A stretch of 62,215 bases of DNA, filler included, from Dugesia japonica (lineage: Eukaryota), in assembly GCA_001938525.1 (NCBI GenBank). It is 5 parts of 5 records of this genome, joined end to end, with 100 filler letters (N's around TTAATTAATTAA, not from the genome) between each part and the next. Parts side by side here need not be neighbours in the genome. Positions count along the whole stretch, not along the records: positions 13,097 to 25,376 come from MQRL01641003.1; 4 more parts are not named here. The stretch is one strand, 5' to 3'. Made by a program: the position numbers and the translations under genes. This document shows positions 60 through 62,175 of this stretch, in pieces. Each line of letters opens with the position of its first letter. Positions within the stretch are counted from its first letter, which is position 1. The notes under the pieces are model-generated. The model made no database searches. It was not told the origin of the DNA and saw only the letters and a list, made by a program, of their open reading frames with translations.

Positions 60-3000
60 AAGGGACTTATATTTTTTTTTCTTATATTTTTTTTTTTATT
101 TTTCCCAATTTTTATGTAATTGGTCCTTTAAACTACAAGATAGCCAATCTCTTATTGTACGAAAATGTCTTTCTATTTGTCCATTGGCTTGGTGATGATA
201 GGGACTTGAATAAATAATATCAAAATTAAATTTTTCTGACAAATTTCGTAATAAATTTGATTCGAAATCTTTGTTTCTATCTACATTAATTGTTTTAGGA
301 ATCCCAAATTTTAAAATCCATTCATTTAAAAGTAATTTCGTGATGGTTTTTCATCTTGTGATATAACAGCCTTTAAATCGTATATTTACTAAATTGATCA
401 ATTATAGCAAAAATGTATTTCTTTCCAATTAAAGTGGTCTGAAATGGTCTGCAAAAATCAATAAAAATCCTTTGAAATATTTCATGTACATTACTTTTAA
501 CCATAATTCCTTTAGTTTTGCATTTCTATGTTTTAGGTTTTTGACAAATGTTTCAACTTGTAATAATTTCTGTGATGGTTTTATTCATATTTGTAAAATC
601 ATATGATGCAGAGATATAATTAATGAGTTTATTAGTCCCAGCATGACACAGNTCTTTGTGTGTTTCTAAAACAAACTCCTGTTTTCTTTCTTCGGGGATA
701 TATATTTTATTTTTCTGACTAAAAACTATTTACTTTCTTGTTTTTGATTGATTCTTGATATTATTGAATCAATTTCCTTACATTTGCTTTGCCATTTATA
801 TTCATTTTTTGTATCTTCAATTGCCAAAATCTTTGTCTTTATTCTTTCTGTTTTCGGATCTTGGTGGGCCATTTGACATTGTTTGTAATCTTCTATATTT
901 AACCTTGATAGGGCATTAGCGTTATTGGGTGATTCACCTTTACTATATTCTAGAATCATATCCAAACTATTTAAGAAATTTATCCAGTTTTNNNNNNNNN
1001 NNNNNNNNNNNNNNNNNNNNNNNNNNNNNNNNNNNNNNNNNNNNNNNNNNNNNNNNNNNNNNNNNNNNNNNNNNNNNNNNNNNNNNNNNNNNNNNNNNNN
1101 NNNNNNNNNNNNNNNNNNCAATTCCTTCCTAGTTATGCAGTATTCAAGTTCATGTTTATTCATGCTTTTCGATCCATATGCAATGGTGACTTCTTTTCCA
1201 TATTTTTTACCTATATTTTTCATGCGATAAAACTGCGCCCATTGAATCAAAACTTGTATCTGTATCTTAAATAAAAGTTTTCTGAAAATTTGGATGTCTT
1301 AATATTGGTGTTTTTGCAAGGCTATCTTTTAGACTTTTAAACTCTTTTTCACATTTTTCAGTNCAAACTAATTTTACCTCTTTAATNCCAATTAACTATT
1401 CCAATGGTCTGGCACTTTTCGAATAACCTTTTATGAATTTGCGATAATAATTTGTTAGACTTAAAAAGCTACGAAGATGCTTAATGCATCGAAGTTTTTC
1501 AAATTTTCTATCGCTTCTATCTTTAAATTATCAGTTTTAATCCCTTCCTTATTTATAATATGACCTAAGAACTTTAATTCGGATGCTAAAAAATTGCATT
1601 TATCTGGATTTAATTTTGGCCCCGATTTTTTAATTCGTAAAAATATTTTTTCAATCCTTTCTTTATGCTCATTTAAATTTTTTGAAAATACTAATATATC
1701 ATCGAGATAAACCAGAGCCTCTTTCCACATCATGTCTCCAATAATAATTGAGATCAATTTTTGGAATTTCGATGGAGCAGCAGCAATACCAAATAGCATT
1801 CGGTTAAAACAATATTGTCCCATTTATTCGAAAATGATGTCTTGAACTTACTATCTTCTTTCAACTCCACCTGATTGTATGCATTTCCTTAGTCTAGGGA
1901 TTAAAAATATTGTGCTCCATTTTAACGAATCAAGCATCTCCTCAATATTTGGAATTGGAAAAGCAGGTCTAACAGTGTATTTATTTAATAATCTNNNNNN
2001 NNNNNNNNNNNNNNNNNNNNNNNNNNNNNNNNNNNNNNNNNNNNNNNNNNNNNNNNNNNNNNNNNNCATGGGGATTCACACTTTTTATAATACCATTTTC
2101 TTCTAAATTATTTATAATTTCTACTATTTTTTCTTCGTAGAGCATTGGCTGCCTTCTAGTTTTCATTAATATCGGTTTGCAATCGGTTTCTATATTTTAT
2201 TTTAAAATGTCTGTTTTACCAATATCCCATTTATTGCTCATAAAATTTCAATTTATCTGAGAATAATATCATGAATACTATTATCGTCATTTAATTTTAA
2301 TTTTTTAATTAACTGTTCGCTACTATTAATACTTATATTATTTGTTGAAAAATTTAGCCTGTAAATTTAAAACGCTGGGATTTATATTATCTATTTCTAT
2401 TAATTTTATTTGTAGAGAATTTTAAATATTTATTCCTATAATTATATATTTATAAGGGGATAAATTCCTTCAGCAATAAAGATTTTGTTAGTACACTTTT
2501 TCCCAATTAATTCAATATTTATATCTACTTTATCTATAATATTTAGGGCACTTGCATTAGCGCATAATACTTACTTGTCATTAACATTTTCATTATTAAG
2601 TTTAATATTTTTAATTTCCCTAGCTATGGTTTTACTCATTACGCTTATTTTCGCCACCGTATCAAATAATTCCTTAAAACAACTTCCATTTAGTTTAATA
2701 TTATTAAAAGGTCTACCATCAATGTTACAATAATTAACAACATTCAAAAATTCAAGCATACATATATCAGTCATTCTATTTTCATCATTCATATTTTTAA
2801 ATATACATTGAATCATTGAATCATTTTCAATCACACCAATACTATTATTAAAATTATTCAAACAATCATCATCACACTCAAACATACTAATCCTCATATC
2901 ATTAATATCATATCTTACATGTAATTTATGGCTCTTATCATTTCCTCTTTGACTGGAGCTTTGGCATTTCCCGAATCATCATTGTTGGCACTCATCATCA

Positions 3001-4260
3001 TATAGAGCAGCAACTTGATTTCTTTTATTGGTAGGATATTATCTGTCATCTCCATGGTATTTGTCATTATTGTAATCTTTGACTTGGTTTCTAATATTCA
3101 TTCTTTTTTCGGTGTCTCCTCGATGGTAACATTTATAACTCAAATATCCTCTTCAATTACAAACAGAACATCGGATATTTGAGCAATCACGGCGTAAGTG
3201 TCCAAATTCATGGCATCCATAACATTGCCTAGAATCTTCATTTTTATTAAATTAAACATATTTGCTTTCTTCTCTACTTTCTGGATACATTTGTCTTGTT
3301 TGTTGACGCATTGGATGTTGAATTGAATTCATTGGTTTCTTAAATGAATATTTCTTTGATTGTTGGATTTCTGGAATTTTTCTTTGATTATTGCTGTATT
3401 TGCAGGGCTGATTATAATTTTCATTTTGTTGATATTTGAAAACTCCAGCATATGATTGTTTTTCTATCGCATTTATTTGTGCCACTGGTTTATTTTTATC
3501 GATGCAATGCAAAATATTTTTTATATATTTGCATGGAGTTGGACCTTTCTGTACGTTTTTAGTTTCGATTTGTTCCTCTTCTTTAAATACTTTCCCTCTT
3601 AATAAATCTTCAGTCATTTTATAACACAGAATTTCTTCCTACTGTGTTTCATTGTCAAGATAATGCTTCAGGAAAAATGTGATCAATTTAGTGCTGGTTA
3701 ATTTATGTCGCATAATATTTTTAACGTTTTTTTCAATTTTTGAAATGTATACATCCANCGTATCGTTTCTTCTTTTGTAATTTAGCAATTTGATTAGATC
3801 GTCGGCTTAATCTGGGCTTTTTAAAAATGCATTTTGCATGCTTTTTCATAATCTTCTTCTGTAATTTGGCAAAAATATTTTTCTTGACTCTTCGTCTAAA
3901 TATGCTCTGATANNNNNNNNNNNNNNNNNNNNNNNNNNNNNNNNNNNNNNNNNNNNNNNNNNCAATATTTCTTTGGTTGTTGTCGAGATGGATCATTGAA
4001 AAATATTGCTCCATGCTCTTCAAAAATTCTTCAACATCATCATTTGTGGTAAATATTCTTGGATGAGGAAGAATTTGTAAAAGATCTTTCGTGGATAACG
4101 TGGTTGCCACGTTATAAAGAAGTCCGACTAAAGTTCCTAAAATATATTTTATAACAATATGACATCATCGGCTTTTATATTTATTGTTTTAGAAGCCAGC
4201 AGTCTTGGGGAAATCTATGAAATAATAATACGGGACTAAAACAAATAAATCAACATACCT
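60..4260 (-). mobile_element. Decayed Ty3/gypsy (Metaviridae) LTR retrotransposon: gag-protease-RT-RNaseH-integrase
   Basis: Gag about 3120-4110 with tandem zinc knuckles (CYGCHEFGHLRRDC; CSVCN*RGYLSYKC). Protease motif LFDTVAKISV about 2640-2670. RT motifs FPIPNIEEMLD, RMLFGIAAAP and LVYLDDILVF at 1461-2170. RNase H (IAYGSKSMNKHELEYCITRKEL, NANALSR) 900-1260. Integrase (IIDQFSKY, SSPYHHQANGQIER) 150-480. Many frameshifts and stops; LTRs not resolved. Confidence 0.93.
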
Positions 4261-4287: not shown

Positions 4288-5290
4288 TTAATTTATACGA
4301 GCACTGAGAGATGATTTTGTAATCATCTCACAATATCCAATCTCAAATTTTCTTGTTGAGACAATTGACGCTGATTTATTTCGAAATCCTTAGCAAGAAC
4401 AAATGTAAATAGCGGGTATTTGCTTTTAAATTCCTCAAGTGTTATTCCGCAATTCATATTCTTATCCAAATATTCTTTATTTCGAACAATATATTGCATA
4501 TATTTTGTACTATAATTATCATTTTCAAAATCTTTAATATATGTCTCTCAATAATGAATGTTTTTCGATAATGATATGGAGGTATCATTTAAATGTTGGA
4601 ATGTTGAAGTAGAAGTTTTATAATTACCATTATATTGATCGCCATTTTGAAATGCAATTAGAAAAAAGTTGGGTAAACGACGATCCCCAAGTATTTGCTC
4701 CTTATAAAATGATGTGCTATCTTTACTAATTGCAAAAGCAACAACTTCCTTCTTTCTTATCGGATAAATCACATTTTTCTTTTTTAAATAGGTAGATTCA
4801 TTGGCTGAAGATTCCAAACAAATTTTAGGAGATACTCTTTTCAATCAAAGGTGAACATTAACACCTGGAATAAGATATTTTAGTTGATCCATAAAGTCAA
4901 GTTGCAATGAACCACATAGGGATAATGCTTTAGATGCTTTTATAGTCTTTTTTCTATTTTCTTCTTATCCATTCCTCATTGCTGTAAGACAAATGTTATT
5001 ACTGTCACCATTATAGTTTAATATAGTTTTAATCAATGCTTTTTGAATATGGGTTCCATTTCCACCTTCAATTTTGAAATTAATAAATGAAAAAAATACA
5101 TCCTTAAAAAGCATATGCAACATATAACTCTACATCACTATGTGATTCAAAATTTGAATTCATAGGAAAGACCTCATCAAATGCACCACTTTCAATAACT
5201 GCTTGAGGTGAATCACGATCAAAAATACACAATTCAGTTTTACCACAAATCATTTTCAAAAGTTTTTCTATGTACTCGTATTCGCTTGTT
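4288..5290 (-). pseudogene. Polinton major capsid protein (double jelly-roll), frameshifted with internal deletions
   Basis: Minus-strand pieces KTELCIFDRDSPQAVIESGAFDEVFP, KALIKTILNYNGD, LDFMDQLKYLIPGVNVHL and QILGDRRLPNFFLIAFQNGDQYNGNYKTSTSTFQHLN follow the order of Polinton MCP motifs (KSELDLF..P.Q; IETLLNY; DIFNQ.KYL..GV; LGQLP......N..FNG...NPFNFQH). Confidence 0.8.
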
Positions 5291-5332
5291 TATACGTGAT
5301 GCTTTCGATTTTTGACGTTTTTTAATAATTTA

Positions 5333-5635
5333 TTATTTTTGCTTTCTTATCATATTACTTATTTCTGGCGAAATCTTATTTTTTATACTGTATGGTAACA
5401 TGTTTGTAACTTTTGGGGTCATATTAGTTACTCCACTAAGTAGCGAAGACACTATATTACCAAGTTTTGTCAATGCATTAGATTTCAATGTTAGTGATAT
5501 TTTTCCATTATTGGCTATTACATCTTGAGCAGGTTTTATACCGAATGACCCAATACGCTTAAGAATAAGAAGCACAAATCTATCTATTGCTCGCAACCAA
5601 CCTGAACCATACTTTTTTCCTACAAAGTTAGGCAA
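5333..5635 (-). CDS. Polinton small basic/amphipathic virion protein (PX / pVI-like)
   Basis: ORF contains GKKYGSGWLRAIDRFVLLILKRIG, resembling the G-x-G amphipathic helix of the small gene found between penton and MCP in Polintons; position fits. Confidence 0.6.
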   Translation of the reverse strand: MPNFVGKKYGSGWLRAIDRFVLLILKRIGSFGIKPAQDVIANNGKISLTLKSNALTKLGNIVSSLLSGVTNMTPKVTNMLPYSIKNKISPEISNMIRKQK

Positions 5636-8951: not shown

Positions 8952-11900
8952 ATGAATAATTCTAACAAAAATATCATTAGTGGGAATCAATGCGCTTTAG
9001 CAGTTGATTTTAAATGTCCTCTGTGTAACAAGTCATTTATAAATAACGCATGATTGTCGTCGCATATCCAATCTCGAACCTGTTCACGATCGGTACACAA
9101 TCATTACACATGTAACATATGTCACAAAACATTAGCAAGTGAAAAAGGCTTGCGACTGCATAAACACTCCACCACATGTGGAGCTTTAGGAGCTTCAGGT
9201 GGTGGAAGTAGTAGAGGTTCTGCAGGGATTGGTGTGATTCCTTTGTATTGTAATATTTGTAATCATAAATTCACAAGAAGAAATCATGCTCAATCCCATT
9301 TCAACAGTGATTTACACAAAGAGCGTGTAAAAAAATTGAATGAAGAAAAAGTTAGAATTATTTGATGAATTACCTGGAGACGAAGCAATTGATTTTGAAA
9401 AGAATGAAATTCGAAAGTTATTAAAATATTTGAAAAATATAAAGTATTATAATATCGAATATTTTTAAGAAAGTAAAATTGAATTAACAAGAAACGTAAA
9501 AACACTAAATTGTAAATTAATAACCAGGTTTAAAAAAGAAATTATTTTGATTATTCAAAAAAGTTGATATTACGATTGAGTGTCAATTGTAATTATAATA
9601 AAGAAGATGAAGAAAGAATATTTAATTCATATTCNNNNNNNNNNNNNNNNNNNNNNNNNNNNNNNNNNNNNNNNNNNNNNNNNNNNNNNNNNNNNNNNNN
9701 NNNNNNNNNNNNNNNAGATGAAGATCAAAGTGGAAGTGGATGGAATTTGGATTATATAATTGATTTTAAAATTGAACTGTCAAAATATCAATCATTAGTT
9801 GGCTCAAGTTATCAAAATTACCTTTTATTAAACTAGTTGTAATTAATATTAAAATTAAACATAATTATTGTTTTCTATATTCGATTTTAGCTCATAAACA
9901 TTTATTTGAAGATCAACCAACTAGAGTTACAAATTATACTCTTTATTTATCTGAATTTAAAATAAACGAAATGAATTTTCCAGCAAGTATTGATAATGTA
10001 AAATTATTTGAAAAATTAAATGATTTTAAAAGAAATTTTTTTGAAGTAGTATATTTCTCATTATATTAAGTTATGAAAGTAACCCGTCATCAAACATAAA
10101 TAAATGTAATTTATTATTTTATAAAGGTCATTATATTTTATGTAAAGATGTTGGTGTTTTTGCAAGTACTAATAAAAATAAAAATCATTTGTGTTTATGT
10201 TGTATGAATTCATACAGAANTAAAACTTTATTAATTAATCATCAAAAAGAATGTATAAATCATGATTCTTCAAATGTTTATTTTGAAACTGATAAATATT
10301 ATTCATTTAAAAATCATCATTTTGGAAATGAATTACCATTTGTAATTTATTCTGATTTTGAAAGTTATACAAATAGAATTTCTTAAATAACAAAACCATT
10401 ATCTCTTGAAATTTATATCTAAAGTAAATATCCTGAATTAATTCAAAATGAATATAAAGAATTCCTTGGAGAAAATATTCATGAACAGTTCTTTCAATTT
10501 TTAGAAGAAATATAAAATAAATTAATTGATATTAAAGAAAATAAATTAATTCCTTATTTTAGAGGAGATGTGCCTGAACTTAGGGAAGGTAAGCAAACTC
10601 ACCTAAAATAAAATTAATAAATTAATTGATTAAATAAATTAATAAGTCCTGAAAAACCAGTTTTACATCACGATCATTTCAATGGAGAATTCAGAGGTTA
10701 TGCTCATTCAAATTGTGATTTGCAAGATAAATCAATTAAAGAATTATTTATTCCTTTATATTTTCACAATGCTTCTGGTCACGATAATATCTGTTTTTCA
10801 AGAAATTATTAACAAAATATCCAACAGAAGTTAAAAGAATAATTCCTTATACTGATGAAGTTTACATTTCCTTTGAATTCCGACAGATTAGATTTTTAGA
10901 TTTAGCAAGAATGTGTCCATTTACATCGATTGATACAATGGGTAAATTATTAAATCAATCTGGAAAATATAACCATTTAAAATCATTTAATCTATCTCCA
11001 AAGAAAATATCATTTCCATATGAATATGTTAAAGGAGAAAATATTAATCAAGTTATTGAATTATTAAAAAGTAGTCACATACCATCAAAAGAAGATTTCA
11101 ATAATAAACTAAAACAACAAAAAATAACTGATCAAGAATACAATGAATTTTTACAAGATTTCAGTAACTTTAATAATTTATGGGATTATAGGATGTTTTA
11201 TATGAAATTAGATGTAATTATTTTAGCAGACTTCTTTGCAAATTTCAGAGATTTGTTTAAATAATTATCAAAATGATCTAAGTTATTGCTATTCTGCTCC
11301 AGGATTAACTCGGGCTGCAGGAACAAAATTCACACAAGTTAAATTAAAATATGCTCTAAAGAAAGTTATGATACTTTCCTAAAAATTGAAAGAGGAGTTA
11401 GAGGAGGATATTCGGGTGTTTGTGGAGAAAGACAGGTTTTTAATAATAACAATATTAAAAACAGTAATTATAAAAAAATAAATCAAGCTGAAAAAAAGAT
11501 TTATTAAAATTATTAAAAGAAGGAAAATCAATTACACCTGAATACTTTGAAGATACATTTATAAAATATCTAGATGAAAACAGTCTTTACGCAAGCTGTA
11601 TAACAAAACCTTTACCAACTCATGAAATAATTGTATCTGATAATTTAATATATAGAAAATCAACCCCAGAAATTACTTACATTTATGAAGTTGATTTAGA
11701 ATATCTTCAAGAAATCAATGAAAAGACAAAATACTTTCCATNAGCTCCAGATAGAATAAATATAACTCAAGAAATGTTAGGACCATATCAATTGTCTTTT
11801 CAAAAGAAATTATCTAAGAAAAATATTAAATTAACGTTGAATCAATTTGATAAAAAAAATTATATAGTTTTAGGAAGTACATTAGATTTGTATTTATTTT

Positions 11901-12792
11901 TTGGAATGAAAAATAAAAAAATACATTCTAAATATATTCTTCCTGCAAAACCTTGGTTAAAAGATTACATTCAATTTAATATCGATCAAAGAAACACATC
12001 TAAAAGAACAAACGATGTATTTGGAGATTATTTCTTTAAATTATTAAATAATGCTTTATATGGAAAGACTTTAGAAGATATTAGAAAAAGGTGTAATGCA
12101 GAAATAGTTGGAACTGATAAAGATTATAAGAAATTTGCATCAAAAATAAACTTTAGATTTAGTAAAATATTTATATGTACAGAAACTGAAGCGTAGAAAC
12201 AGCAGCTATTTATTTAAGGCAATCTAAATTAAAATATAATAAATTCCCATACATAGGATTTACTATTTTAGAATATGCAAATGAAGTAATTTATGACTTA
12301 ATTTATAATTAGTTAGATGTAAATATTCCTAACAAGTATAAAATACATTATAGTGACTCAATCTTTGTAGAAATAATTGGAAGAGATAATTTTAAAAAAA
12401 GTAGAAAGTTTATTAGGTAATAATTTATTTCAAATGAAGGATGAGAAACCAAATTTTGAAATAATTAAATGTGATTTTATAAAAGCTAAAAGTTATGCTT
12501 ATGAATATGACACCAAGTTAGACAAAAGACATAAAGGTGTTTCAAAGTTTAATGAAATATGGATGAAGGAATTCGATAAAGCTTAAATTCAAAAGAAAAT
12601 ATTTATGGAACTAATTATTCACTCAAATCACAAAAACACAAAATAAAATTAGTTGAAAAAAAGATTGCTTTAACTGGTTATGATGATAAAAGATTGAGTG
12701 AGGATAATGGTATAAGAACTTGGCCACATGGAAATAAGTTTAAATGTGAAAATTGTAATCAATGGCATTCAAGATTAGATAAATTAAAATAA
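8952..12792 (+). pseudogene. Protein-primed family B DNA polymerase (pPolB) with three N-terminal zinc fingers and an endonuclease VII-like insert
   Basis: Zinc fingers CPLCNKSF, CNICHKTL and CNICNHKF; GSGW motif; ExoI LPFVIYSDFES; HHDHFNGEFRGYAHSNC; ExoII YFHNASGHD; FPYEY; ExoIII YMKLDVIILADFF; GVRGGYS; YLDENSLY; FFKLLNNALYGKT; degenerate YSDS; KSYAY; KGV; YDDKR. Many frameshifts. Confidence 0.93.
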
Positions 12793-13096: not shown

Positions 13097-13874
13097 AAAA
13101 TTTGATTGAAAATATTTTTTTTTTAATTATATTATTATTTTATAAAGTGATCATTTTAAAAATTTGATTGGAAATATTTTTTTGTTAATTATATTATTAT
13201 GATAATTTTTAAAATTTCTTGTTTTTCAATTTTTTAAATAATTTCGGTCAGAATTAAATGAAAATATTTAGCTTAAAACAACAAATTTTTAGTTTGTGTT
13301 TTTGTTTGTCTTGAATAAATCTTGGAATAAAAAGTGTTAATTTTTTAAATGCAAAGATGAATGTTAAAGATTCATCTAACAACCTAAATTATTGAACTCT
13401 AAAAGTGAATTCCCGAGATTGCTTATTTATTATCTATTTATTTGGTTATCTATCCGACGGTGAATTCAGCGACAGCGAATTTGTAACTTTATTTTTGTGG
13501 AATTCTAATCTGGGAGTAATACTAACGATTTCTGTCGGTAATTTGTTATTATAAATATTATCTGAGTTGGCTTTGCGATTAATTTGTACTGGCACGTTAG
13601 TATTTTGATTCTTATCAATTTCGTTGTAATTTATTGTTGTTATTATTATTAAATATTACTAATTTATTAAATGCAGTAAATCATCATATAAAAATACAGT
13701 TAATCATAAAGTAATTACATTGGTAACATAATTAGTTATTATTTTGACTTTATCGTTATATCATTTCCACGATTCCCAATCCGTTTGACATGAACCACAA
13801 AGGTTTTGTCATGATTTCTTTAATTGGATGTCCAAAGGTGTTTGAGTGTTTAATATAATTCTTGGAAAGTAAAC

Positions 13875-14115
13875 ATATTTTACTATTGGTAATTAATTAA
13901 AAATCAGGTTTGGCAGAAAAGAATATTGTATTTAGCCCTCGAGACATTCGCGTATCAATCGGTTAGTGTTTTAAGAGAAATATATCCGCGATAAACATNA
14001 CCACTGAAATTAATGGTGTTGTGGGGACAAATACGGTGACGTACTCCTCCGTTACCAATTTGTTTCGTAACTTTCAATAGGGCAGAACATCCTTTGATCA
14101 GGATGGACTCGTGGA
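13875..14115 (+). mobile_element. Mariner transposase N-terminal (HTH) fragment
   Basis: DIRVSIG*CFKRNISAINxTTEINGVVGTNTVTYSSVTNLFRNFQ*GRTSFDQD matches the mariner HTH pattern. Confidence 0.7.
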
Positions 14116-15086
14116 TCATTTTGAATTATAGTGTATTTGAGTTTTGGGAGATTACTTTCAGGAATTTTGTGAAACTTTGCAATTATTAAATAAATATTTG
14201 TTCAATAGTAGATGGATAGTGGCGCACCGTACCACCCCCCGCCTTACGTGATCAATATACAATGGGGACGAATTGTATAAAGCTTGTTAGGTAATGAATT
14301 AAATCCAACTACGTTATGCATATCTAATTACATCACAACCCATGATTACGTCATAATTGTATAATGATTGTGTAATATGTAAAAAGCACGCCATAAAACT
14401 ATTTATTTCACAGTTACGTCATTAATTATGTAATTACAATTAGAAATTTCATTTTTTCACGGAAATTCGGCACAAAGACAAATTTATGTTTAAATTAATC
14501 AAATTTTTAAAAAATTTTCAAAGTAATTTTTATTTTCTTAACACGATTTTATTTATACAAACTTTCTGAGAATTTCTTCGGGGTAAATTTTAATTATATT
14601 TCTATTTTTCCGTAACAAAATTTTACTCAAATTTTATCATTAGAGCATCGATTAAAAAGAGAATTTTACGATGATAATGACTAGCATAGTTAAAAATCAC
14701 CAAATCTTGTCATTGATGAAATAAAATGAAAAAACAATAATACGCACAAAGTGTGTATAGAAGAAATTTAAAAATCAAAAGCTTAATCTAAAGATGGAAA
14801 ATCTAGAATGTTTTTGGTAATTCTTTCGCAGAAAAAACTAAAGTTTTTACTAAAATAATCATATTGGAAAATGTTCATAAAAACTGAAATAAAATAATAT
14901 TTATAATTATAATTAAAATAACTAAAATGAACATAAGTTTTATTTAGGTTACAAAAAATTTCATACGTTAAATACTTCATATAAAATTATTTTTTTATTT
15001 ATTAATAACTAAAAAATACGTAAAATAATATTTAAAAACTGAAAATCAATAAATATTGTACGAATGAGATTAAAATTATAAGTTAC

Positions 15087-15510
15087 CATTAGTTGATAAT
15101 AGAAATCTTGCGTCATTTGCTTGAGGTAACCACTTAATTTTGTTTATCTTTTCTTCAATTTCTAATGACTTTAAATAATCAAATTCAGGTTCATGACTTG
15201 TGAAAGTACAATGAACTATGTAATCAACTAAACGACCATCTGTCTAAAATAAATAACAATCTAGCAATTTTCATCTTTACTCAAAAATTTTAATGCTAAT
15301 TACATTATGATTTCGCTTAAAAACAACAACCCTGCCACCTTTATCACCAGTGGCTACAAACTCTCCAGTGTGATCAAACTCCAGACAAGAAATTATATCA
15401 GCTAGATTAGAAAATATTTTTTAATTTTCTTTATTTACCTAAATGAATAAACCTTCATTTATTTCTTCATCTGAAGTTCCTTTCATTTGAGAGAAATACC
15501 AATCCATTGT
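15087..15510 (-). CDS. PPP2R2: Protein phosphatase 2A regulatory subunit B55 (twins/sur-6/Cdc55 family), first three coding exons
   Basis: Exons 15510-15453, 15401-15304 and 15243-15087 joined by 51- and 60-nt GT-AG introns give [48 protein letters not shown]...[40 protein letters not shown]. Remaining exons not found before the contig end. Confidence 0.96.
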
Positions 15511-17039
15511 CTAAAATTAAAAATTTAAGATAATACTGAAGCCTTTAAAAATAAAAATACAAAATATATTAACTAAAATGATTATGTAATAGTGTATAAA
15601 TTATTTGTAAATCTAGTTTATACAAAGTTAATATTCAGAAGTTGGTTAACTAAAGTAATTTATAAAATCTTATATTTGTCAAGCATAATTTAAATAAGAT
15701 AAACAAAAATGTAAGTTGAATTCATTTCAATTTAGAAATTTTATGGAAACCATTTTAAAAATATCATTTAAGAAATATTGAAGGAAAAACGGTAAAAAAT
15801 GTTTATTTTAGTTTGTGTGGAAATCATATTGCGATTCAATGTGAAAAAAATAAATAAAATTATTAAATATGTATTAAACGTGAAGTATTGTAAATACTAA
15901 ATACCAGAGGTGGCAAACCTTCTTTATATAGTGAATAAATTTTTGTAAAAAGTTTACATTGAAATTTCTTATAAGCAAAGTGATACATGTTTATATATCC
16001 ATTAAGCGAATAACTCAAAGAATAATAAACTTGATTATGGTGGAATGTTTGTAAAAATTATTGTAATATGACCAAATTATTTAAATTAAAAATTTCTCCT
16101 AGACATGCATCATTTAAGAATTACTCTTACAGACCAAAAACTATATTATATCTTAATTCATTCTTTGAACTTTAGAATTCTTGGGCCTGAGAATATTATA
16201 AAACAAATAGATAATTTATATTATGAATTAAATGTTTTTGGAAATTTAGTTTTCATTAAAAAATCTCGCTTCTTAATTTCATTATTTAGTTTATTTTTAG
16301 AAGTATGCATTTATGAAAAGTTATATTTGATATAATAGTTATCATACTTTGTTTTGTAATAATTCCTTAATCTAAAATATAATCTAATATTTTCATTATT
16401 TCTCTAAAAACATTGTGTTGTTAATTTAGCAGCAACCAATTTTCTAAAATTGACAATTAAATCAATGATAATATTAAATCTGTGACCTTTCTTTTGTACA
16501 AAAACATAGTGACATTTTCAATGGAATACATTTGAAAAGAGAATTGATATTTAATGAATTCACTTAATCTCTCAATAATAAGACATTATACCAGAAGTAC
16601 GCAACCTGCCATGGAAAAGTTCGATGTTGTGTTTAAATCTATAGTCATCAAATATGATACAAACAAGCTATACAAAGTTTATAATTTAGCTTATTACCAA
16701 AATCAAGCATTCATTGATTTGCGTGCTAAGCTTAAATAAAAAAATATTATTTATAATAAAATTTAATTATTTGTGTTGGGACAGAATCCACCAAAAATAT
16801 TCATTGAAAAAGTAAAAGGGGTGAAATCATTAGAAAATTAGGCTATAATATTCGAAAAACAAGAAATACGAACTGGAAATAAATTGCAAACAATATAAAC
16901 GAATTATATTAAAATGAAAATTGATAATAAATAAATAATAGATATTACGATNNNNNNNNNNNNNNNNNNNNNNNNNCAGATGATTTACGAACGATAAAAA
17001 TAATAATCAACTTATTAAACGAATTAATAATTAAAAAAA

Positions 17040-18980
17040 TGTGTTGGGGTTCCACCTGAGGTTATATCGAAAAGAAAAAGCTGGCTGGGGAAAACGGCTC
17101 TCAGGGGATCCCTCTCAAGAATTTAATCTAACGCCCTTAAGTTAGATCTTCGGTGTAGAGCGGTTGACCTTCGACCTTTACGGGAGGTTCACACTCGTAC
17201 ACCTTTAATTCGGGTTCTTTATTTTCCCTATTATGTTATTTACAAAATCAATTAATAAATCGTTAAAACTAATTTATATTTTATAACATACTACAAGAGA
17301 TCAATAGCATCCGGGTCTAACTACTGGGTGTGATCGTCATCTGAAAAATTAAACGCAGCTTCGTCGCCATTGTCGTTCCTTTGTACCCAGGACGGATTAC
17401 TAAGCTGACGAGATAAATCTGCCATGTACCTTTTCAAAAAATCAATTTTATTTTGAAGGAGCTGTTTCGATTGTTCGGCTAGATCTCCCTGTTTCCTAAC
17501 GATGAGATCTAGTTTTTTTATAAGCCTATTTCGTTGTGTGAGATGTTTCATTAACTCTCGCTCAGATCGGCGTTTAAGATGACGCTCGAATAATAATCGT
17601 CTGATAATCCGGTGACATTCTTTAGACTTTTGGGAAAGTTATTCGTGGCACTAAATATGATGATATTAATCTATTATTTTTTTACTTAAAGTAATATATT
17701 GAATATAAACGCAAGAGTCATCTGAAAAATTTAGTCGAAAAATTATTTATTAAAGAAATGAACCAAGTTTACGGCCGTGATGCCTGGTTCACCAACCGGT
17801 TTATTCTCTAGGTTGTGAAGGAACCGGATAATTTCTGCGTGAGACTCTACTTGAGCCTTCCATGCTCTCTCTTGAGTATGTGATGCCTTGGCTTCAGTCT
17901 TAAAGGCCACACATTTCTTTTTGTATCTTTTGACCTTGTTTTTGGCGTTCGCAGTGTCAGCCTACCAGGGACTTTGGCAAGCTTATAAACGTCCCAGGTC
18001 ATTTCTAAGTCCTCATTAGACTCACGGATTTTCTTAGTCGGGGCAGCTGCGCGATTTAAGGAGGAATGCACTAAAATATAGAACATTAAACGAAGTCTAC
18101 AGAAACCAAATAAAAGAAGTGATGCAGTGCATAAAACACATATTCACATACAGTGAACCCTTCCAACCTCACTGATCATAAAAAAATATTTCTTTTTTAA
18201 AGAATTAACTTAACTGAGAAAGAAAATTGAACTAAACGGATTTCTTATTAAGCCTTAAAAAACTATTTATTCAGATTACAGTGAAACCACAATTGACTTC
18301 GACAATTACTGGTCAGTCTCCGTGTTGACTATTGGTTCTCTATTTGCCGAGTTTTCTGCACCCATGGGTTCCCTAATACCCCAGAGTAAGTTCGTAATAA
18401 AAGCTTGTACTGCTGGGGGTGGGACTGAAGGTTGATAGCGGAATAGAGTTACATGATTACGCTCCGGTCCAGTCCAATTCTGGTAATTCTGACGTTACCC
18501 GAAATTCTGGATACGTGCCACCATAGCCTCTACTGGAGGTAGATTTGACTGGTCCGAAAGAATGCTCGCGTCTCGATTGTACCGATTTGTATGTCGCCAA
18601 AAATCATACGACTTGTCCGTCGGTCGCTAACTCTTTCCCATATGACATTCACTAAAATTTTATATAAACAGAAGATAATTCAAAGGCTCACAAGTTATCA
18701 AAAATTAGAATTAAAATAGAGTCATAAAATTATATTTTAGTTCCTTTAAAAAATAAAACAAATGCGATGGTACGTCACCATGTGGGATCTAGGTCTCCAT
18801 CAACTTGCTAATCAAATGGGAACATCTCAGAGAGACACTGTAAATCGGTCTCGTCCGGATGTTCTACCAGCTCGGGGAATAAAAGGGGTCCGATCAATTG
18901 CCTCAACCGAGAGGCTTTACGTTCTTTACGAATTTTGAATAGCATGGTATTCAGCTCAGTAGTCATATCCTAAATAATTT
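17040..18980 (-). other. Array of four GC-richer mini-ORF cassettes, each preceded by a TTTAG splice acceptor, followed by a structured LTR-like end; probably retroelement accessory exons
   Basis: Acceptors at about 18970, 18652, 18071 and 17651; frames of about 60-115 codons with few stops; AT-rich spacers; minus-strand AATAAA at 17223-17218 and ...CCCCAACA end at 17042. Confidence 0.45.
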
Positions 18981-21307
18981 TAAATTTTAAAACCGTCATT
19001 AATTGAATGCGCCTACAAAATGAGCCTCTAGATTTCAAGTACACTGGATCTTAACCACAACTGCCAACTTAAAATTCTCTTGAGCTGCAATTAAAATAAA
19101 TGTCCACAATACTGGTTAGTAACTGCGGAAAATAATAATGATGGCCTGACAAAAATGGTGACATTAATACTAATAATCAAGATGCTAATCGTTTTACTAA
19201 TATTAATAATAGTAATACCAATGGTATTAATAATGGAAATCGACATAAAGATATTAATAATTATAATGATATTGTTAATGTTAATAATAATGGAATGCAT
19301 AATAATATCATTTTAAGAATCATGATAACGTAAATAGGATGGTAATCCCTGCTCACATGAATAAAACAAATGATAGTTATAATTATCTACTACTTTAAAG
19401 TGAATGCAACACAGAATGCTCACGGACAAAATTCATAGTATTTGTGTTTCTAGTAACGACCTTAATTAGCAGTGTAATCAAAGAGATGAATGCCACTTTT
19501 ACACGAATATGATAAATAATGCTTCGCATACAAAATATTACCTAATAATTTCATCAATCATTAACCGCGTTTGTGTGTTCATTTACTACATTTCTACTCG
19601 GTGGTTGTGCATTCCATTACAGTGAGTCAGTAGTGAAGTGAACTTTTGTTTTACGTGTTAAAACTTCTGACACACCTACTGGTGAGAAGGTGAATATTAA
19701 CTTATTACTGCTCACATGGGGAACTGATTTGCTTGAATTAGTTACTGAGCTAGATTAGCAGGGAAAACGATTGAGAATAAAAGTGTGTTTTTTCAATCGA
19801 GTTTATCAATAGATGGCAGTTAGTATGTGCCAACCCATTTTCTAAGACTATCTGATCAATCATGAGAAAAGTTTCCATTACGTTTGCTGGCGTGTGAGTG
19901 TATCGTGAACTTTTGTGGTGACGATATGTGAGTTGATCTTTACTATCAAGACACGGGTTATATATTGTCTGGCTGCAGACAACAGCTAATTTTGGGTGAG
20001 ATCGTTTTTCTGACCAGATCATGATTGTCTAATAATTTAAATGGAAAAAGGAATTTCTATTCAGGTTTAGGTCTAAAATTTAGCAGATGTTAGCATATAT
20101 ATATATGCAGAATAAATTAACTTTAATTTTTTTCCCCACTTCTTCCTTATTGGGTGTTTATTTTTAGTTCAAATCTTGGGTTTCTGATTGGGTTTTATGT
20201 CAATTTTTAGATAATTTCTGCAATTTTCTGCGCTTCCATTGGCAGCTATTTTTGGAGTGCCATGTGATCAGCTTATCTTTGTTTAATTTTTATTTTCAGA
20301 TCGCCTACTGGTCCAATCTTTGACCCTTCGTAAAAATCCTCCTGATTGTGCTACAATTTTCTGGATACAAAATCCCAATGATCTGATACCTTTCCTGTTC
20401 AGTTTTTCTTAGTGCCAGCTTCTACTATTTTCCCGAACAAAGTTATTCGCAAAAAACGGATTTTTACTTAATTTAGATTTATTTTCCGTTAAAATTTAAT
20501 TAATAATTCTTCATTAATTAATTCTTCTTCAAAATTAATTTTCTTGTATTTAATAATTTTTCTTAATTATTGTTTTGATGGGGGTTACATTTGTCCATTA
20601 AGGATCTCCATACTCATTTGTCTTCAATTTCGGGATATGTTAACCGTTATTTTGATCACTTGTTGCCCTGAAAGTTTATTGTACTTTTCTCTACCACGGA
20701 CTTCTTTTTTGATCTACCTTTCTTTGTTTGTTTATGTTTTGAGCCCTTCGCCTCAATTTTCTTCCACCATTGGGTGTTTTACAAATGTGTAAAAAACGAT
20801 GGCAAATGTTTAATAAAAAAATAAATAACACCATTTAAAATAAAACTTTATTGTTATATTTTTTGGCGGATCAACCGTCATCATTAGGCAAAAATGAAAA
20901 AATGAGCTTTATCACTCTTTATTATTTAAACAAAGATTAATGCAATTATACGGAATATAAGACGACTATAATTCTTAATTTTTTAAAAATTCTTCAATAA
21001 AAAAATTAATTTATATTCTTATAAAAAATTTTTTCTTTAATAATATTTTATTAAAATTACTGTTACCTATAAAATCAAAGACGTTTTTCAAAAATATTTA
21101 AAATTTTTATAATTAAATCAATAGATTTTGACATAATAAAAATGAAATGCAATAAATCCAAATAATTTATAATAATTTTATTTTGAATTTAATTTTCTGT
21201 GTAATTTGTAAACATTTCAAGCAGTTTTTAATTTTTGTGACGCGAGATTTCTAACAAGGAAGTCGCCATTTTTCGGCCATTTTGTTTTGGTAATTTCAAA
21301 AAATTTT

Positions 21308-21505
21308 ATTAAAATAAGAAAAGGCTTCGATCAAAATAAAATTTATTTGTATAAAGGTTCAAATTTTCGACAAGACTATTGTAGAAAATGTGAACCTTTT
21401 TACAAATAAATTTTATTTTGATCGAAGCCTTTTCTTATTTTAATGAAATCTCAAATGCGATCAATGGTTAAGTCCAACAATTATTCTCACAATAATTGTA
21501 ATTAT
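21308..21505 (+). repeat. Fold-back (palindromic) repeat, Penelope-like terminal repeat family
   Basis: Inverted arms about 21308-21361 / 21391-21444 plus tail GATCAATGGTTAAGTCCAACAATTATTCTC shared with the copies at 28008 and 52441. Confidence 0.75.
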
Positions 21506-21578
21506 CAAAAAATTTTGTTATTTTAAAAATTTATCCTCTTGATCTCGGTAAATTTAAGACATTATTGTATCCCAATTT

Positions 21579-21800
21579 AATGAGATGATATTACTATCGC
21601 AGTTAATAAACCGAAAATAATTCATGGAAATTTATGAGATGATATTAATATCGAAGTTATTAAATCGAAATTATTTTGTGCAATTCAATGAGATGGTGTT
21701 ACTATCGCAATTAATAAACCTAAAATATTCTATGAAATTTAAAGAGATTATATTGCTATCAGAGTTGGTAAACAAAAAATATTTTTTGTGATGAGCTGTT
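21579..21800. repeat. 54-bp (18-codon) degenerate tandem repeat, about 4 units
   Basis: TGAGATGAT-like starts at 21581, 21635, 21689 and 21743; minus frame reads e.g. LNFIEYFRFINCDSNTIS with occasional stops. Confidence 0.75.
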
Positions 21801-22708
21801 ATCACTATTGAAGTCAATATGCTGTAAAGAATTCATGCAACTATGGCAGTTATAACTTAAAATTTCTTTAGGTAATTCAATGTGAAAGTACATTTGGTGA
21901 GGTTAATGGAATGAAATATGTTAAGTCTATTGTTTGGGAAGACAAAATTTTGACAAAACTGTTATTACAGTTGATGATCTGATGGCTGAATTGATTCAAA
22001 TGTTATTACAAATAATGAACTGTAATGAAATGTATTGAACCTCAAATGGACTCAAACGTTTATTACACCGAATGGTATGAATATTTAATGCCAATTACAT
22101 CAGAAGTTTAGGTGAACTCAGAGATAAGTTAATCCTAATGTTATGATAGTCAATGAGAATACATCAATAAATTGCCGGTTGGGGTAAATGTGATACACGA
22201 GAAAACTTTTAACGAAAAATGCTCCATCCGGTACGATGAACGTAATTATTAACAATTAACACTTTATGATTGTTTCATTGTAAATAAAATTTACAGAAAA
22301 TAAACCTCGTGTTGATTTCTTGATGAATATGTGAAATAGGAGAGCTTCTGCCGTCACAATCAATCTGGAGCTTATATTGCTCGCAATAAAAGAACCCACA
22401 TGTAATCGGTGCATGCCTTGATGAGTCATTGACGCTGCTGAAAATCCGGTCTGTGGTTGATTACACTTAGACCAACCGTAAATCTAAAATACAACCACTC
22501 ATACCCCAACATTTGTATTTAAATATTTATTAAATAGGATTATAATTAATTTTTATAAGATATCAAGAAGTTCGGTTTATATTTGAAAAACATTGCTCTT
22601 GTCATGTAGCCGCTATAAAATAAACATTTTGTTGTGCGCCCGTCGATAAACAAAAGGTTGCACACTCCTGTATTATGCCAAGCAATATGCATTGTCAATT
22701 TAAATTAT

Positions 22709-23190
22709 TTATACTAAAATTTTTATTGATGTGGATTTTAATTTTTTGATCTGGTATAAATAATATTTTAATTCTATGATCCATTTTAGAAAAGTCTGTT
22801 GGCATTTATATTTTGATGCTGGCATGACATGGTATTCAACAAAAGTAAAATTGATACATTCTCGTTTGTACAATGAAACTAATGCAAAAGACATTAATTG
22901 TATTGAAGAAGTGTGATTATCTCAGTGATAACACTACTGATAAAAGTTCATAAATGCCTGTTGTTGATTTTAGTCTTATCTATAACTTTCAGTAATTCTA
23001 ATAATGTGATAGTTCGCCCAATTGAATTTGCGTTGTTAATCTGTAATCGGTCATTACAGTCGGTTTCACTTTTGATCTCGACAACTCTATTATATTTCGT
23101 TATTTTAAAATATTTAATGCACAACTGATAAAATTTGCTATATTTCATATAACTGCATGCGAATATGGAAATTTTAAATGGCAACGCCAT
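22709..23190 (-). pseudogene. Intronless decayed gene of unknown (virus/Polinton-like) origin
   Basis: Consecutive ORFs 23190-22948 and 22894-22709 appear to be one gene broken by a stop and a frameshift; no recognisable family. Confidence 0.3.
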
Positions 23191-25070
23191 TAATTTAACA
23201 AGTGTACATAAATAAATATTAAAATTATATTTTACTCATAAAAATACCTTAAATGACGAAGTATAAATAATCAAACTTTATTTTAAAATGACATATTTTA
23301 TCAAAGTTTACATCAAGTTACGTTAAATGATTAACAATGTGAACAATGCTAATTAACAATGCTTGTTAATATCTTTTGTTAGATTAATAATGAGCTGCAA
23401 AATGATTGAGATAAATTTCTATATGATGTTCCTTCAAATTACAAAAAACACCATGTAGGTAGCTTTCTATTGGTCAAACTTCTGCAACTTGTATCTCTGT
23501 ATTTCAAGATTTTCAATCAACAATTTCTGATCATAATTCTCTGATTTTAGAGTGATTTCCTAATTTCTATTAATTACCATATAATTACCATATAACTATG
23601 TAAGGCCTTAAAATACTTTTGGGGGCGTAATTCTTCACTATTATAAATATTTGTTCTTTTATAGTTTTCTATATTTTTTTAATGATTTTATTATTGATTC
23701 TCTTTCTATTAAGATTTGGACTTTTTAATTATTGATTAAATACTCTTCCTCGCCTTATTTTACTTTCATTAATCCTGAAAAATTATAATCAAAGTTAGTC
23801 TAGTTATTTAAAATTATTTTTTGAGATTTTGGTTAAGATTATTTTAAAGATAAAATAAGATAAAGAATAGAAGTAGATTCACGGGAAGAAGATTTTGATT
23901 TAGATTTAGTTGATAGCAATTTAGGTTTTGTTTTCCTTAATTTTATGAGGAGATAATGGTAAGGGTGATAAACTACTTGGTTCACTTTCATCAAAAAAAG
24001 ATTTTTTAACATCATCATTAATCTATTTTATTTTCTTCTTAATTATTAATTACATGTTCATTTCTTTGTTTTTCTGATCTAAATTTAAATTAATTTTGTT
24101 GTTTTTTCTTTCATTAATTAATTCCTTTAATTTATTTTCTTTTCCTGCCATTATTATTTCAATATGATTTTCTTAATTTTGGCTAACGAACTAATTGTTA
24201 TTCATTATTTTCTTCATCTGGCTGATAACTTCTATTACTTCTTTCCTCCTTATTTCTGAGTTGTTTCTTGCTGTAAATTTAGATTTTTGCCGGTTATAAT
24301 GTTGGTTTTAACTAGCAACCTTTGTTTTTTTTAATTATTTCTTTCCTTAAATGAATTGTAACTTTCTTTTGTCCGGATTCTTTGTTTCTCCATTTGGTGA
24401 CTATCTTTTTATTTCGGCTTTACCTACTGCCATTTTTATTTCCCGTACCCAGTGTTTCACCCCAACAAATGTACTGTTTAATTAATATTTGATTATTTAA
24501 CCTGTTCTAAATTTTCACTTGTAATTTTGATTAATTTAATTATTGTTTAATTTACAATAGGAATAAAAAGATAAAATAATTTTTAAAAACTTGAAAAATT
24601 TAAACAAATTTACTTTTTCTATGAATTTCCGTAAAACTTCAACCCAAATTGACCATCCTGAATAAATGATAGACCAAAACGCCTAAAAATTACTTAAACT
24701 AACCAATCCATAGGAAAAAATTGACAAAATTCACCTGAACCAACCAAAGATTGGACCAATTCACCCAAAAATTACCCAAACCGAGTAATCTCGATGATAT
24801 ATTGGACCGAATCCACCTGAACCAACAAAAAGTTGATTATATTCGACCTCACCGAGTAAATTCCCAACCAAATTCACCTAAAACCAATCAAAAATTGATC
24901 TCATTCGACCTCACCGAATAAATTCCCAACTAAAAAGCCTAAAAAATATTACCGCTTAATAAGTCTTATTAGTATCGAGAACTAAATCCAAATAATTAAA
25001 ATTGTATTATAAAAGTAGGTAGATCTTAGCGCACATCACCCCCAACCCCCCACCAGGGGGAGGAGGGGTA

Positions 25071-25210
25071 GTGGTGTGATTTTAGATTATTGATTAGTGG
25101 TGTGACTTTAGATTATTTATTAGTGGTGTGATTTTAGATTATTGATTAGTGGTGTGATTTTAGATTATTTATTAGTGGTGTGATTTTAGATTATTGATTA
25201 GTGGTCTGAT
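25071..25210 (+). repeat. 26-bp minisatellite (GTGGTGTGATTTTAGATTATT[G/T]ATTA) x5+
   Basis: Units start at 25071, 25097, 25123, 25149 and 25175 with a partial unit at 25201; G/T alternates between successive units. Confidence 0.92.
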
Positions 25211-25376
25211 TTTTGATCGGATGAAATTTTTGATCGGAAAAAATTTTTTGATCGGATCAGAAAAATTTTTTTTTAAATTAATAGAAAAATATTTTTGTTT
25301 TCATGGTGATTTTTTCTTAAAATTTTTTTTGGTGGGAAATTCAAAAAAATATTTTTGGTGGGAAATTTAAAAAAAA

Positions 25377-34970: not shown

Positions 34971-36107
34971 TTGTGTCATTCGGAAGTAATGTGGGATTTC
35001 GAAACCAAACTTTAAACTTTCTTAACTGAGTCCATTACAAATGTTTTCTTAAAATTAAGTACCATTGGAATCTATGGATTGTTGCAAACGTGATAAAAGT
35101 TTATTGATACCCATTTGAAATAAATCTGGATTTTTGGAGTTAATGAAATCTTTGAATGCTGTTTCGATATCGCACTGATTTTTAACACTTTATTCTTCAA
35201 GAAGTGATCAAGATGTTTAAAGAAATAGAAATTTGCGAGTCATGCCCGGTGAGCATGGTGGTGAGCAATAGTTTCATATCCTATCTTATGTTGTTTTTGT
35301 ACGACTATTCATGAAACATAGTATGTGCGTTGTTGTAAAGGAACATTGGACCCTTGGATTGACTTAAACCGACTTTTTTGTACCATTTTTTACATTTCCT
35401 TCAACTGCTCACAGTACGATGTCGCAGTGATTGTATCGCTAGTCTGGGTGTAAGAAAAGTGATTAACTCTCATGGTAGACATAGACTTCAGATGGAGCTT
35501 CGTTTTTTGGAACTGTTTAGGTGACTTATCAACTGATAACTATTGTGCATAACTTTTGCAGTTATCATTTTTCACTTTTCATCAGAAATAATGGGATCGG
35601 TGGAATATATTCTGAGAGATTTTGGTATCTTCAGTCTCCTTTTCATGTGGATTTCAGTAAGATCATGCAGCATCCACTTATCCAGTTTCTTGACTTTGCC
35701 GATCAGCTTCAGATATTTGAAGGTAGTTGATTGATAAACATGCATATTTGTCGCTATCTCTGACAAACTTTGCCCTGAGCCCTCCCGGAGTATTTGTTTT
35801 AAAACATCGTCATCTACAGCAGAATGTCGCCAGGTTGTTTCTTTATCTTTAAGAGACTCATTTCCACTTCGGAACTTCTAGAACCAGCTCTGCATGGAAC
35901 ACTAAACTCCATCTTTGTTTATATTTTCTGTTGCATTGTGACCAAGTTTAAATTCATGAAATTTCTTTGCAAAACCTTTGCAATATATAGAAAACATAGT
36001 TCTTAATTATATTAACATAAAAAATCGATTGGAAATATTTATGCTTTATAGATATTCTTGGAAATCTGGTCTATTGAAAAATTCGCAATTACTTTCGAAT
36101 GACCTAA
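34971..36107 (-). mobile_element. Mariner element, decayed
   Basis: About 28-bp imperfect TIRs (TTGTGTCATTCGGAAGTAAT / ATTACTTTCGAATGACCTAA), TA flanks, transposase remnants LKLIGKVKKLDKWMLHDL (WVPHEL-like) and ISDEK. Confidence 0.9.
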
Positions 36108-61900: not shown

Positions 61901-61954
61901 ACAAATATAATTTATTCCTTCAACAACCCATGTGCAAAGTGTTGAAAGCAGCGG

Positions 61955-62175
61955 GAAAATTGTAATTACCGATGTATAAATTGTAGTAAACCGCGTCTAA
62001 AGTACAGACACTTATATATGAATTACACCGTACGCGTAAATTGTTGACACCTAAATATAAATTATAGCAGACTATACTTAAATTATTTCAAGTTGTCTGT
62101 AAATTGTAACCGATTATGTGCAAATTGTAGCAAGCTATGGACAAATTATAGCCATATGTGTAAGTTGTAACCATC
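61955..62175 (+). repeat. Degenerate ~20-bp repeats (AAATTGTA...) probably from a DNA-transposon subterminal region
   Basis: About 9 recurrences of aaattgta(g/a)/aaattata(g). Confidence 0.5.

Follow-up and report, generated by a model that had tools for sequence, protein, structure and literature searches.

Conserved gene cassettes inside the long terminal repeats of a large Gypsy-type retrotransposon of Dugesia japonica, probably expressed by splicing from one leader

Complex retroviruses (HIV-1, HTLV, foamy virus and, with its sag gene, MMTV) carry accessory genes in the internal region or in U3, with one shared 3' end, and genes that overlap the long terminal repeat (LTR), i.e., HIV nef, MMTV sag and foamy-virus bel, are usually situated in U3. 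The foamy-virus LTR has its major splice donor upstream of the poly(A) signal, and U1 binding suppresses polyadenylation in the 5' LTR (PMC3694450). Planarians harbor giant Gypsy-like LTR retrotransposons, Burro or GYPSM1, for which accessory ORFs are mentioned; their internal region reaches 25 kb and their total length exceeds 30 kb, and they encode one polyprotein with a long insert between the Gag knuckles and the protease, the domains reported being BIR, BCL2, MATH, ankyrin, env and dUTPase-like (PMC6431247). The same source describes the Ogre elements of plant hosts, which have LTRs of 1.9-6.5 kb and extra ORFs in the internal region. Giant planarian Gypsy elements also feature in PMC8532177 and PMC11410931, the available portions of which hold nothing on LTR genes. 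In Drosophila gypsy and the springer clade, the Met codon of env is created by splicing, as AT/G, the slash marking the splice boundary (PMC2585583; bioRxiv 10.1101/2023.08.03.551782). Finally, the Cer1 element of C. elegans produces from a spliced RNA the lineage-specific protein CERV, which is needed for export of the genomic RNA (PMC10309623). Splice-made start codons, as in gypsy env, and accessory genes served by a common leader are already known. No description of a spliced gene array inside an LTR was found in the open-licence text of PMC and bioRxiv; the original Burro paper and its supplements, or Repbase, may annotate such frames.

Here we describe a candidate for such an array in Dugesia japonica. 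The DNA analyzed, referred to as the window, is a stretch of 62,215 nt composed of five joined parts of assembly GCA_001938525.1, and the array lies in the part at 13097-25376 (contig C641003), on the minus strand of the window, which is the sense strand of the parent element. An earlier note on this DNA, made from the sequence alone, had reported four acceptor-led islands here. The acceptor-like sites are present, with their last G at 18970, 18652, 18071 and 17651, and the islands, which we call cassettes 1 to 4, are indeed richer in GC (about 0.40-0.50) than the spacers (0.13-0.25). What that reading overlooked is that the array sits inside an LTR, that a start codon is split across the intron and that the copy is decayed.

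The islands lie in a solo LTR of 3,742 bp (17042-20783), assigned to a large Gypsy-type retrotransposon by the family ends, the primer site and complete relatives. It is flanked by two copies of CATT, read from the sequence as the target-site duplication (20784-20787 on the 5' side and 17038-17041 on the 3' side); its 3' terminus is intact and its 5' terminus damaged. A conserved block at 20135-20570, delimited by alignment of 12 natural-copy stretches and containing CCAAT at 20242, 20191 and 20153, is inferred to act as a promoter. In relatives of this LTR a TATA-like box follows directly downstream of the CCAAT block. In the window, comparison with L032 and L135 places a deletion junction at 20129-20137, where the TATA box, leader exon and splice donor are gone; the two relatives carry the leader motif and donor at the position of the gap, and the window LTR is without the motif. 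A remnant of the first intron (18971-20129) begins about 70 nt past the donor of L032 and is 84-90% identical to L032, L137 and L142. A 92-aa frame at 20028-19750 was set aside; it falls in the first intron, and its relatives are near-identical DNA copies.

Cassette 1 (18775-18969) encodes about 60-65 aa from its own ATG at 18966, with a premature stop at 18810-18808. Cassette 2 (18306-18651; about 115 aa), which opens AG/TG in the subfamily of the window copy, has a frameshift near 18600 and a stop at 18497-18495. Cassette 3 (17788-18070; about 118 aa in open copies) also opens AG/TG and is damaged by a frameshift near 17970 and a deletion cut near 17788, and cassette 4 (17291-17650; about 126 aa; AG/TG start) by a frameshift near 17630 and a premature stop at 17323-17321. 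The AATAAA signals that the earlier note saw in some spacers are found at 18271 and 17751, behind cassettes 2 and 3. It had also held that each island ends at its own stop, which is true of the cassettes, but the stops at 18808 and 17321 are premature, homology reaching on to 18778 and 17294. Similarly, the peptides it read do lie in conserved frames, but those from the frameshifted cassettes 2, 3 and 4 are only pieces of proteins of about 115-126 aa. A conserved terminal block common to all subfamilies compared (17042-17230) closes the LTR. All four cassettes are broken in the window copy, which, without TATA box, leader and donor, is probably silent. The islands are a real feature of a conserved system, although this copy of it is dead.

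The window LTR is a mosaic, its cassette 4 and end being 91% identical to L138, its cassettes 1-3 84% identical to L135, and its intron 84-90% identical to L032, L142 and L147. Given that cassette content also differs among subfamilies, this suggests that cassettes are exchanged by recombination. Deletions are common in the family (L016, L020, L076, L137 and the window copy). In L076, L079 and L092 the next LTR starts no more than about 40 nt past an LTR end, or two ends stand tail to tail; LTR copies may cluster in the genome.

Other repeats surround the array. On the minus strand of the window, two more starts with the same 9-nt terminal motif occur at 24467 and 22511, the latter opening a separate repeat of about 1 kb; neither matches the cassette-bearing LTR by blastn at 1e-8, and both are probably related LTR families. 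A 71-nt inverted repeat at 21303-21449, 94% complementary and MITE-like, is found in other loci too, and tandem repeats of 26 nt and 54 nt occupy 25043-25243 and 21573-21788, respectively. Pieces of a C2H2 zinc finger and of DNA polymerase B2 at 9054-12196 are Polinton-like. Other Gypsy gag/pol (RVT_1) fragments, a DDE transposase fragment and two further pieces, which we take to be a mariner-like HTH and a Helitron-like helicase, are spread over 99-3638, 57669-61996, 54003-54494, 35575-35877 and 46587-47223. Near the LTR copy of L142, a 371-aa open frame (4331-5443) resembles a glycosyltransferase.

To identify the parent element, we used the DNA search for further copies that the earlier note had proposed. 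With 16980-19100 as the query, 65 matches were obtained in 40 scored of 5,857 candidate contigs, at 68-93% identity when the self match is set aside, in an assembly of 648,594 contigs; the region is a dispersed repeat. The LTR end motif has 2,174 exact occurrences genome-wide, against none for the reversed control, and the flanks of the LTR ends are mostly unrelated, with primer-site-like sequence in 2 of 30. An LTR end with the primer-site motif 7-8 nt behind it was found at 65 places (control, 0), and the complement of the primer site is present in four tRNA-like stretches. In L239 (C378538, 153-224), the LTR end and primer site continue into a tRNA body scoring 46.2 bits on Rfam RF00005, as would result from copying of the priming tRNA into DNA; we take the 5' half of this body to be Ala-like and the 3' half Pro-like. 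From the CGG/TGG anticodon loops in L237 and L238, the primer is presumably tRNA-Pro, and ARAGORN at default settings called no tRNA, so that no intact tRNA-Pro gene was obtained. Two complete solo copies, of 4,224 and 4,108 bp, are both flanked by 4-bp duplications (TATC and AAAG), and the TG...CA termini of complete copies form 9-bp inverted repeats, which are perfect in L139 and contain one mismatch in L140.

One of the LTR ends with a primer site leads into gag and RT, on contig C591397. In this single, decayed copy a zf-CCHC match (E 2.6e-7, at contig position 14,000 or so) precedes about 5 kb of coding pieces, mostly in one frame, and these in turn precede two protease-like motifs (at about 8,950 and 8,300; E 0.006, below the cut-off), RVT_1 (E 1.8e-24) and RNase H (E 9.3e-26), i.e., the order CCHC, protease-like, RT, RH; an integrase match at the end of the contig possibly derives from another element. 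The two protease-like motifs stand in tandem before the RT (L129:8296-8999, the same contig). Matches of the RT-side fragment bear RT, RNase H, integrase or protease Pfam domains, as is typical of Gypsy pol. In this one copy, the 3' end of which lies beyond the contig, RT ends about 10.4 kb from the LTR end and the last long frame is reached at 12.8 kb; none of the contigs gathered covers an element in full. The repeat is an LTR, as identified by its termini, duplications and primer site, and its parent is probably a large Gypsy-type element. A Ginger-like or other TG...CA DNA transposon was ruled out by the primer site and RT; only 9-bp inverted ends were found, and the complete copies contain no transposase frame.

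The element resembles Burro in being a large Gypsy-type retrotransposon of an AT-rich genome with about 5 kb of extra coding sequence between the CCHC knuckles and protease/RT, but the LTR-internal genes, leader splicing and split start codon are absent from the available part of the Burro description (PMC6431247). Pfam searches of 31 short, decayed pieces of C591397, one copy, gave no match to BIR, BCL2, MATH, ankyrin, env or dUTPase; because these signature domains were undetected, we call the element Burro-like and stop short of assigning it to Burro. Very long LTRs are shared with Ogre, whose partially available description, in contrast, puts the extra ORFs in the internal region and the hosts among plants.

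In open natural copies, cassettes 1-4 encode about 60-65, 115, 118-121 and 126 aa, respectively. The earlier note had suggested comparing selection per cassette across copies. Pairwise pN/pS in the sense frame was 0.42, 0.29, 0.31 and 0.27 for cassettes 1-4, among open copies only (21 of 36, 8 of 41, 10 of 44 and 11 of 39), with pairs that are non-independent and pS near saturation. In four other frames the ratio was 1.0-1.9, and in the mirror frame, which shares third positions, it was 0.42-0.55. All four cassettes are under purifying selection across copies, and this holds across subfamilies whose introns do not align. Behind the stops, AATAAA occurs within 80 nt in 33/39, 32/39 and 34/47 copies of cassettes 2, 3 and 4, but after cassette 1 in only 16/40; the background, in windows before acceptors, is 15/158. 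Cassette 2 also has a distant paralogue (27-31% identity), a fifth cassette, which takes its place in L138 and L139 and occurs next to it in L133.

The earlier note did not recognize the proteins, and our searches gave no named homologue. No Pfam family scored above the cut-off (for cassette 1, Pfam was the scope of the homologue search), and only weak coiled-coil matches were seen. No homologue of cassette 3 was found, and a profile of cassette 4 had 0 matches among 1.84 billion. The cassette 2 profile matched one unnamed 94-aa protein (P0009; 38% identity), encoded by a public contig of 512 nt; no other outside relative was found for any cassette. Metagenome and viral contigs yielded no relatives, and the Atlas search nothing at 0.9 or above. 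Cassette 1 combines a basic N-terminus with an acidic C-terminus, cassette 2 has an Arg-rich N-terminus, and cassette 4 has a basic start, a long predicted helix and an acidic tail. The structural model of cassette 4 is one helix over residues 7-90 (pLDDT 81, pTM 0.43) with a low-confidence acidic tail, and a fold search with it gave no viral match at E 0.001; the model of cassette 2 is unreliable (pLDDT 50). Judging from composition only, it is an even call whether the cassette proteins serve the element as nuclear regulators. CERV of Cer1, likewise a Gypsy-family element, provides a model for a possible role (PMC10309623, from the available text).

The starts of the cassettes point to an exon upstream. 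Of the copies of cassette 3, 41 of 44 open AG/TG, as do 32 of 39 copies of cassette 4; both cassettes are open in phase 1 and have no ATG at the start, while the intron ends before them fall into 16 dissimilar types for cassette 3 (one mis-anchored row and two deletion junctions included) and 18 for cassette 4. Since the islands belong to a dispersed repeat and AG/TG is kept while the intron ends are dissimilar, they are more than chance. For cassette 2, 16 copies of the window's subfamily open AG/TG (14) or AG/TA (2), in the register of the ATG of 8 other copies, a count that omits 7 rows with a wrong anchor and 15 with none. In cassette 1 an ATG of its own stands 2 nt (13 copies), 3 nt (12) or 4 nt (1) past the AG, and 10 of 36 copies have none. 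Where a cassette starts AG/TG without an ATG, the upstream exon should supply the A.

A suitable exon is present in the relatives. Across the 12 aligned natural-copy stretches, CCAAT boxes and then a TATA-like box occupy LTR nt 230-700 or so, and a conserved 9-nt motif with a donor lies about 300 nt beyond the TATA-like box. This motif followed by GTAAGT occurs at 779 places genome-wide (16 for the reversed motif), and in 765 of these A precedes the donor GT, another base in only 14; by comparison, A precedes 38 of 125 other GTAAGT sites in the loci examined. ATG is depleted from the sense strand of 21 leaders (17, against 90.7 +/- 8.8 after shuffling and 72 on the antisense strand), with an open in-frame ATG in one leader of the 21, and a purine occupies position -3 in 23 of 30 leaders. 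The 9-nt motif itself, 9-24 nt before the donor, is kept amid otherwise unalignable leader sequence and is retained in the joined copies described below; it may be a splicing enhancer or factor site. Separately, a conserved acceptor with an ATG 5 nt behind it lies 270-331 nt past the LTR end in 16 of 21 primer-site loci (e.g., L071 and L130) and may be the route to the internal genes; beyond it are tandem repeats and a donor-like site preceded by G (6/9 long loci). That splicing should create the Met codon of a subgenomic RNA recalls env of gypsy and the springer clade, which are likewise Gypsy-type, but there, in the available descriptions, the split is AT/G in one gene of the internal region; here it would be A/TG, reused for two or three LTR genes.

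Some genomic copies appear already spliced. A pattern of leader motif, free gap and cassette start, designed for cassettes 3 and 4, was found at four loci for cassette 3 (L232-L235) and one for cassette 4 (L236), with 0 in the control. All five have A as the free base ahead of TG, so that the junction reads ATG, and lack the acceptor G, which a deletion through a shared A-G-T would keep. The leaders of the five are mutually unrelated (local scores 19-24 of 300), and the copies thus represent separate events or lineages. L233 joins at the same base as the donor of its relative L178 (87% over 78 nt), the one case of the five with a matched unspliced relative among the loci gathered. CCAAT and TATA are kept 333-350 nt upstream in L232 and L233, and the spacer to cassette 4 and the LTR end in L233 and L235. 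Against the splice reading stands an unexplained excess of A at donor position -2, in 3 of 5 joined copies and 2 of 30 unspliced leaders. Two further candidates were rejected. The leader motif, ending CAG, is not a micro-exon acceptor, as the TATA-to-junction distances (333 and 350 nt) fall within the unspliced range of 241-479 nt and hence no upstream intron has been removed; and L076, the upstream part of which is without a following GT in 13 relatives, is a deletion. On the simplest reading, the joined copies are products of reverse transcription, along the LTR route, of element RNA that had been spliced once, which would place the array downstream of the start site, in R/U5 of the LTR.

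From this genomic record, the cassettes are very probably expressed by intact LTRs as alternative last exons, to any of which one non-coding leader is spliced. Transcription would start just past the CCAAT/TATA block, about 0.7 kb into the LTR, giving a leader of about 300 nt that ends in A. Its donor would be joined to one of four or five acceptors, and each message would consist of one short frame with its own poly(A) site, ending at the AATAAA behind the stop. For cassettes 3 and 4, and for cassette 2 in the window's subfamily, the ATG would be made only by the splice, as A/TG, and cassette 1 and the other forms of cassette 2 would use their own ATG 1-4 nt past the acceptor. Unspliced RNA that passes all the poly(A) signals and reaches the primer site would serve as the genome. 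One leader donor, several acceptors and several small proteins are what the element has in common with complex retroviruses, here by genomic evidence; it differs from them in that the array is downstream of the LTR promoter and has separate poly(A) signals, and hence each LTR of an element contains it, as do solo LTRs. The cassettes showed no sequence homology to complex-retrovirus accessory genes. By analogy with foamy virus, in which a strong donor likewise lies within the LTR ahead of the poly(A) signal, U1 at the donor might let the full-length RNA of the element pass its poly(A) signals; foamy virus differs in having one poly(A) site and no gene array in the available description (PMC3694450).

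The proposal in the earlier note of a mobile-element accessory locus, expressed by alternative 3' exon choice from one leader, is supported by the parent element, the leader with its donor, purifying selection and the precisely joined copies. Its alternative, trans-splicing, is unneeded, because the joined copies bear the element's own leader. Flatworms do trans-splice, and an operon resolved by a spliced leader would fit the T-rich acceptors with an ATG 1-4 nt behind them in cassette 1 and some forms of cassette 2; however, cassettes 3 and 4 are without an ATG at the start, cassette 2 starts with a stop when read in phase 0, and a cis donor with a fixed A exists, all of which makes such an operon highly improbable. 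It also seems quite unlikely that U3 contains the cassettes and that only the 3' LTR expresses them, through a donor close to the 5' terminus of the full-length RNA. U3 is the usual place of LTR-overlapping genes, and the donor-like site behind the primer site could be such a second donor, but G precedes it and not A, the CCAAT/TATA block is upstream of the array, and in the joined copies the cassette is preceded by the leader and promoter block of the LTR itself.

That all TG-starting cassettes open in phase 1 would also be expected if the leader were a coding first exon and the cassettes alternative C-termini, with the split codon an internal Met/Val. This is barely credible in view of the strong depletion of ATG in the leaders and the near lack of open in-frame ATGs, the variable spacers between motif and donor (9-24 nt) and the cassettes that have their own ATG at offsets of 1-4 nt. 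Captured host exons or chance GC-rich patches, useless to the element, have next to no probability and are already largely refuted as an explanation. The joined copies would then be ordinary DNA deletions; deletions are common in the family and most copies are broken, but the acceptor G that a deletion through A-G-T would keep is missing from all five, selection acts across subfamilies whose introns do not align, and no Pfam family exceeds the cut-off. Nor do the islands behave as ordinary exons of one host gene or as the antisense of a known ORF, two of the outcomes that the earlier note had set against its proposal: the cassettes end in their own stops, and the selected frame is the sense frame.

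RNA data were consulted for the leader-to-cassette junctions. The index lookup found no runs recorded as RNA that contain the stretch. Four raw-read runs mapped to 16980-20900 at 85% gave 18-320 reads, many of them past the LTR end or in simple repeat, with a depth of up to about 2 on cassette 3 in run X7, a local depth peak on the terminal block (17042-17230) in runs X7 and X8, and 0 joints of leader to cassette. When three contig sets and one raw run were mapped to 17030-19120 at 80%, diverged relatives covered the cassettes, and none of the joints listed was a junction at an acceptor. Data sets X1, X2 and X4 are only guessed to be RNA. This null result is weak, since depth is low, the reference is without the leader and most loose ends lie outside those listed (300 in the contig-set mapping). 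It is plausible that the family is expressed.

LTRs are usually taken to be non-coding, and solo LTRs to be inert remains or isolated promoters. The LTR described here, of 4-5 kb, carries four or five conserved genes without named homologues, the splicing of which is recorded by the genome itself, and it is so long because the gene array is inside it. This raises the problem of how full-length RNA gets past several poly(A) signals and of how an R/U5 of 4 kb is reverse transcribed. It is also a warning, in that such genes are lost to repeat masking and overlooked by ATG-based gene finding. In a host rich in retroelements, the cassettes are candidate regulators or silencing suppressors. Taken as a whole, a more far-reaching reading is possible but doubtful: the LTR, with its promoter, leader, four or five exchangeable last exons and poly(A) signals, would be a self-contained modular gene cluster, hundreds of solo LTRs could keep making regulators without the element, the split A/TG would keep the genes untranslatable in the unspliced 4-kb leader of the genomic RNA, and the choice of splice site would switch between regulators (a Rev-like cassette 2 and an activator-like cassette 4) and full-length RNA. 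If true, a control circuit of the complex-retrovirus kind would have evolved separately in an invertebrate Gypsy lineage.
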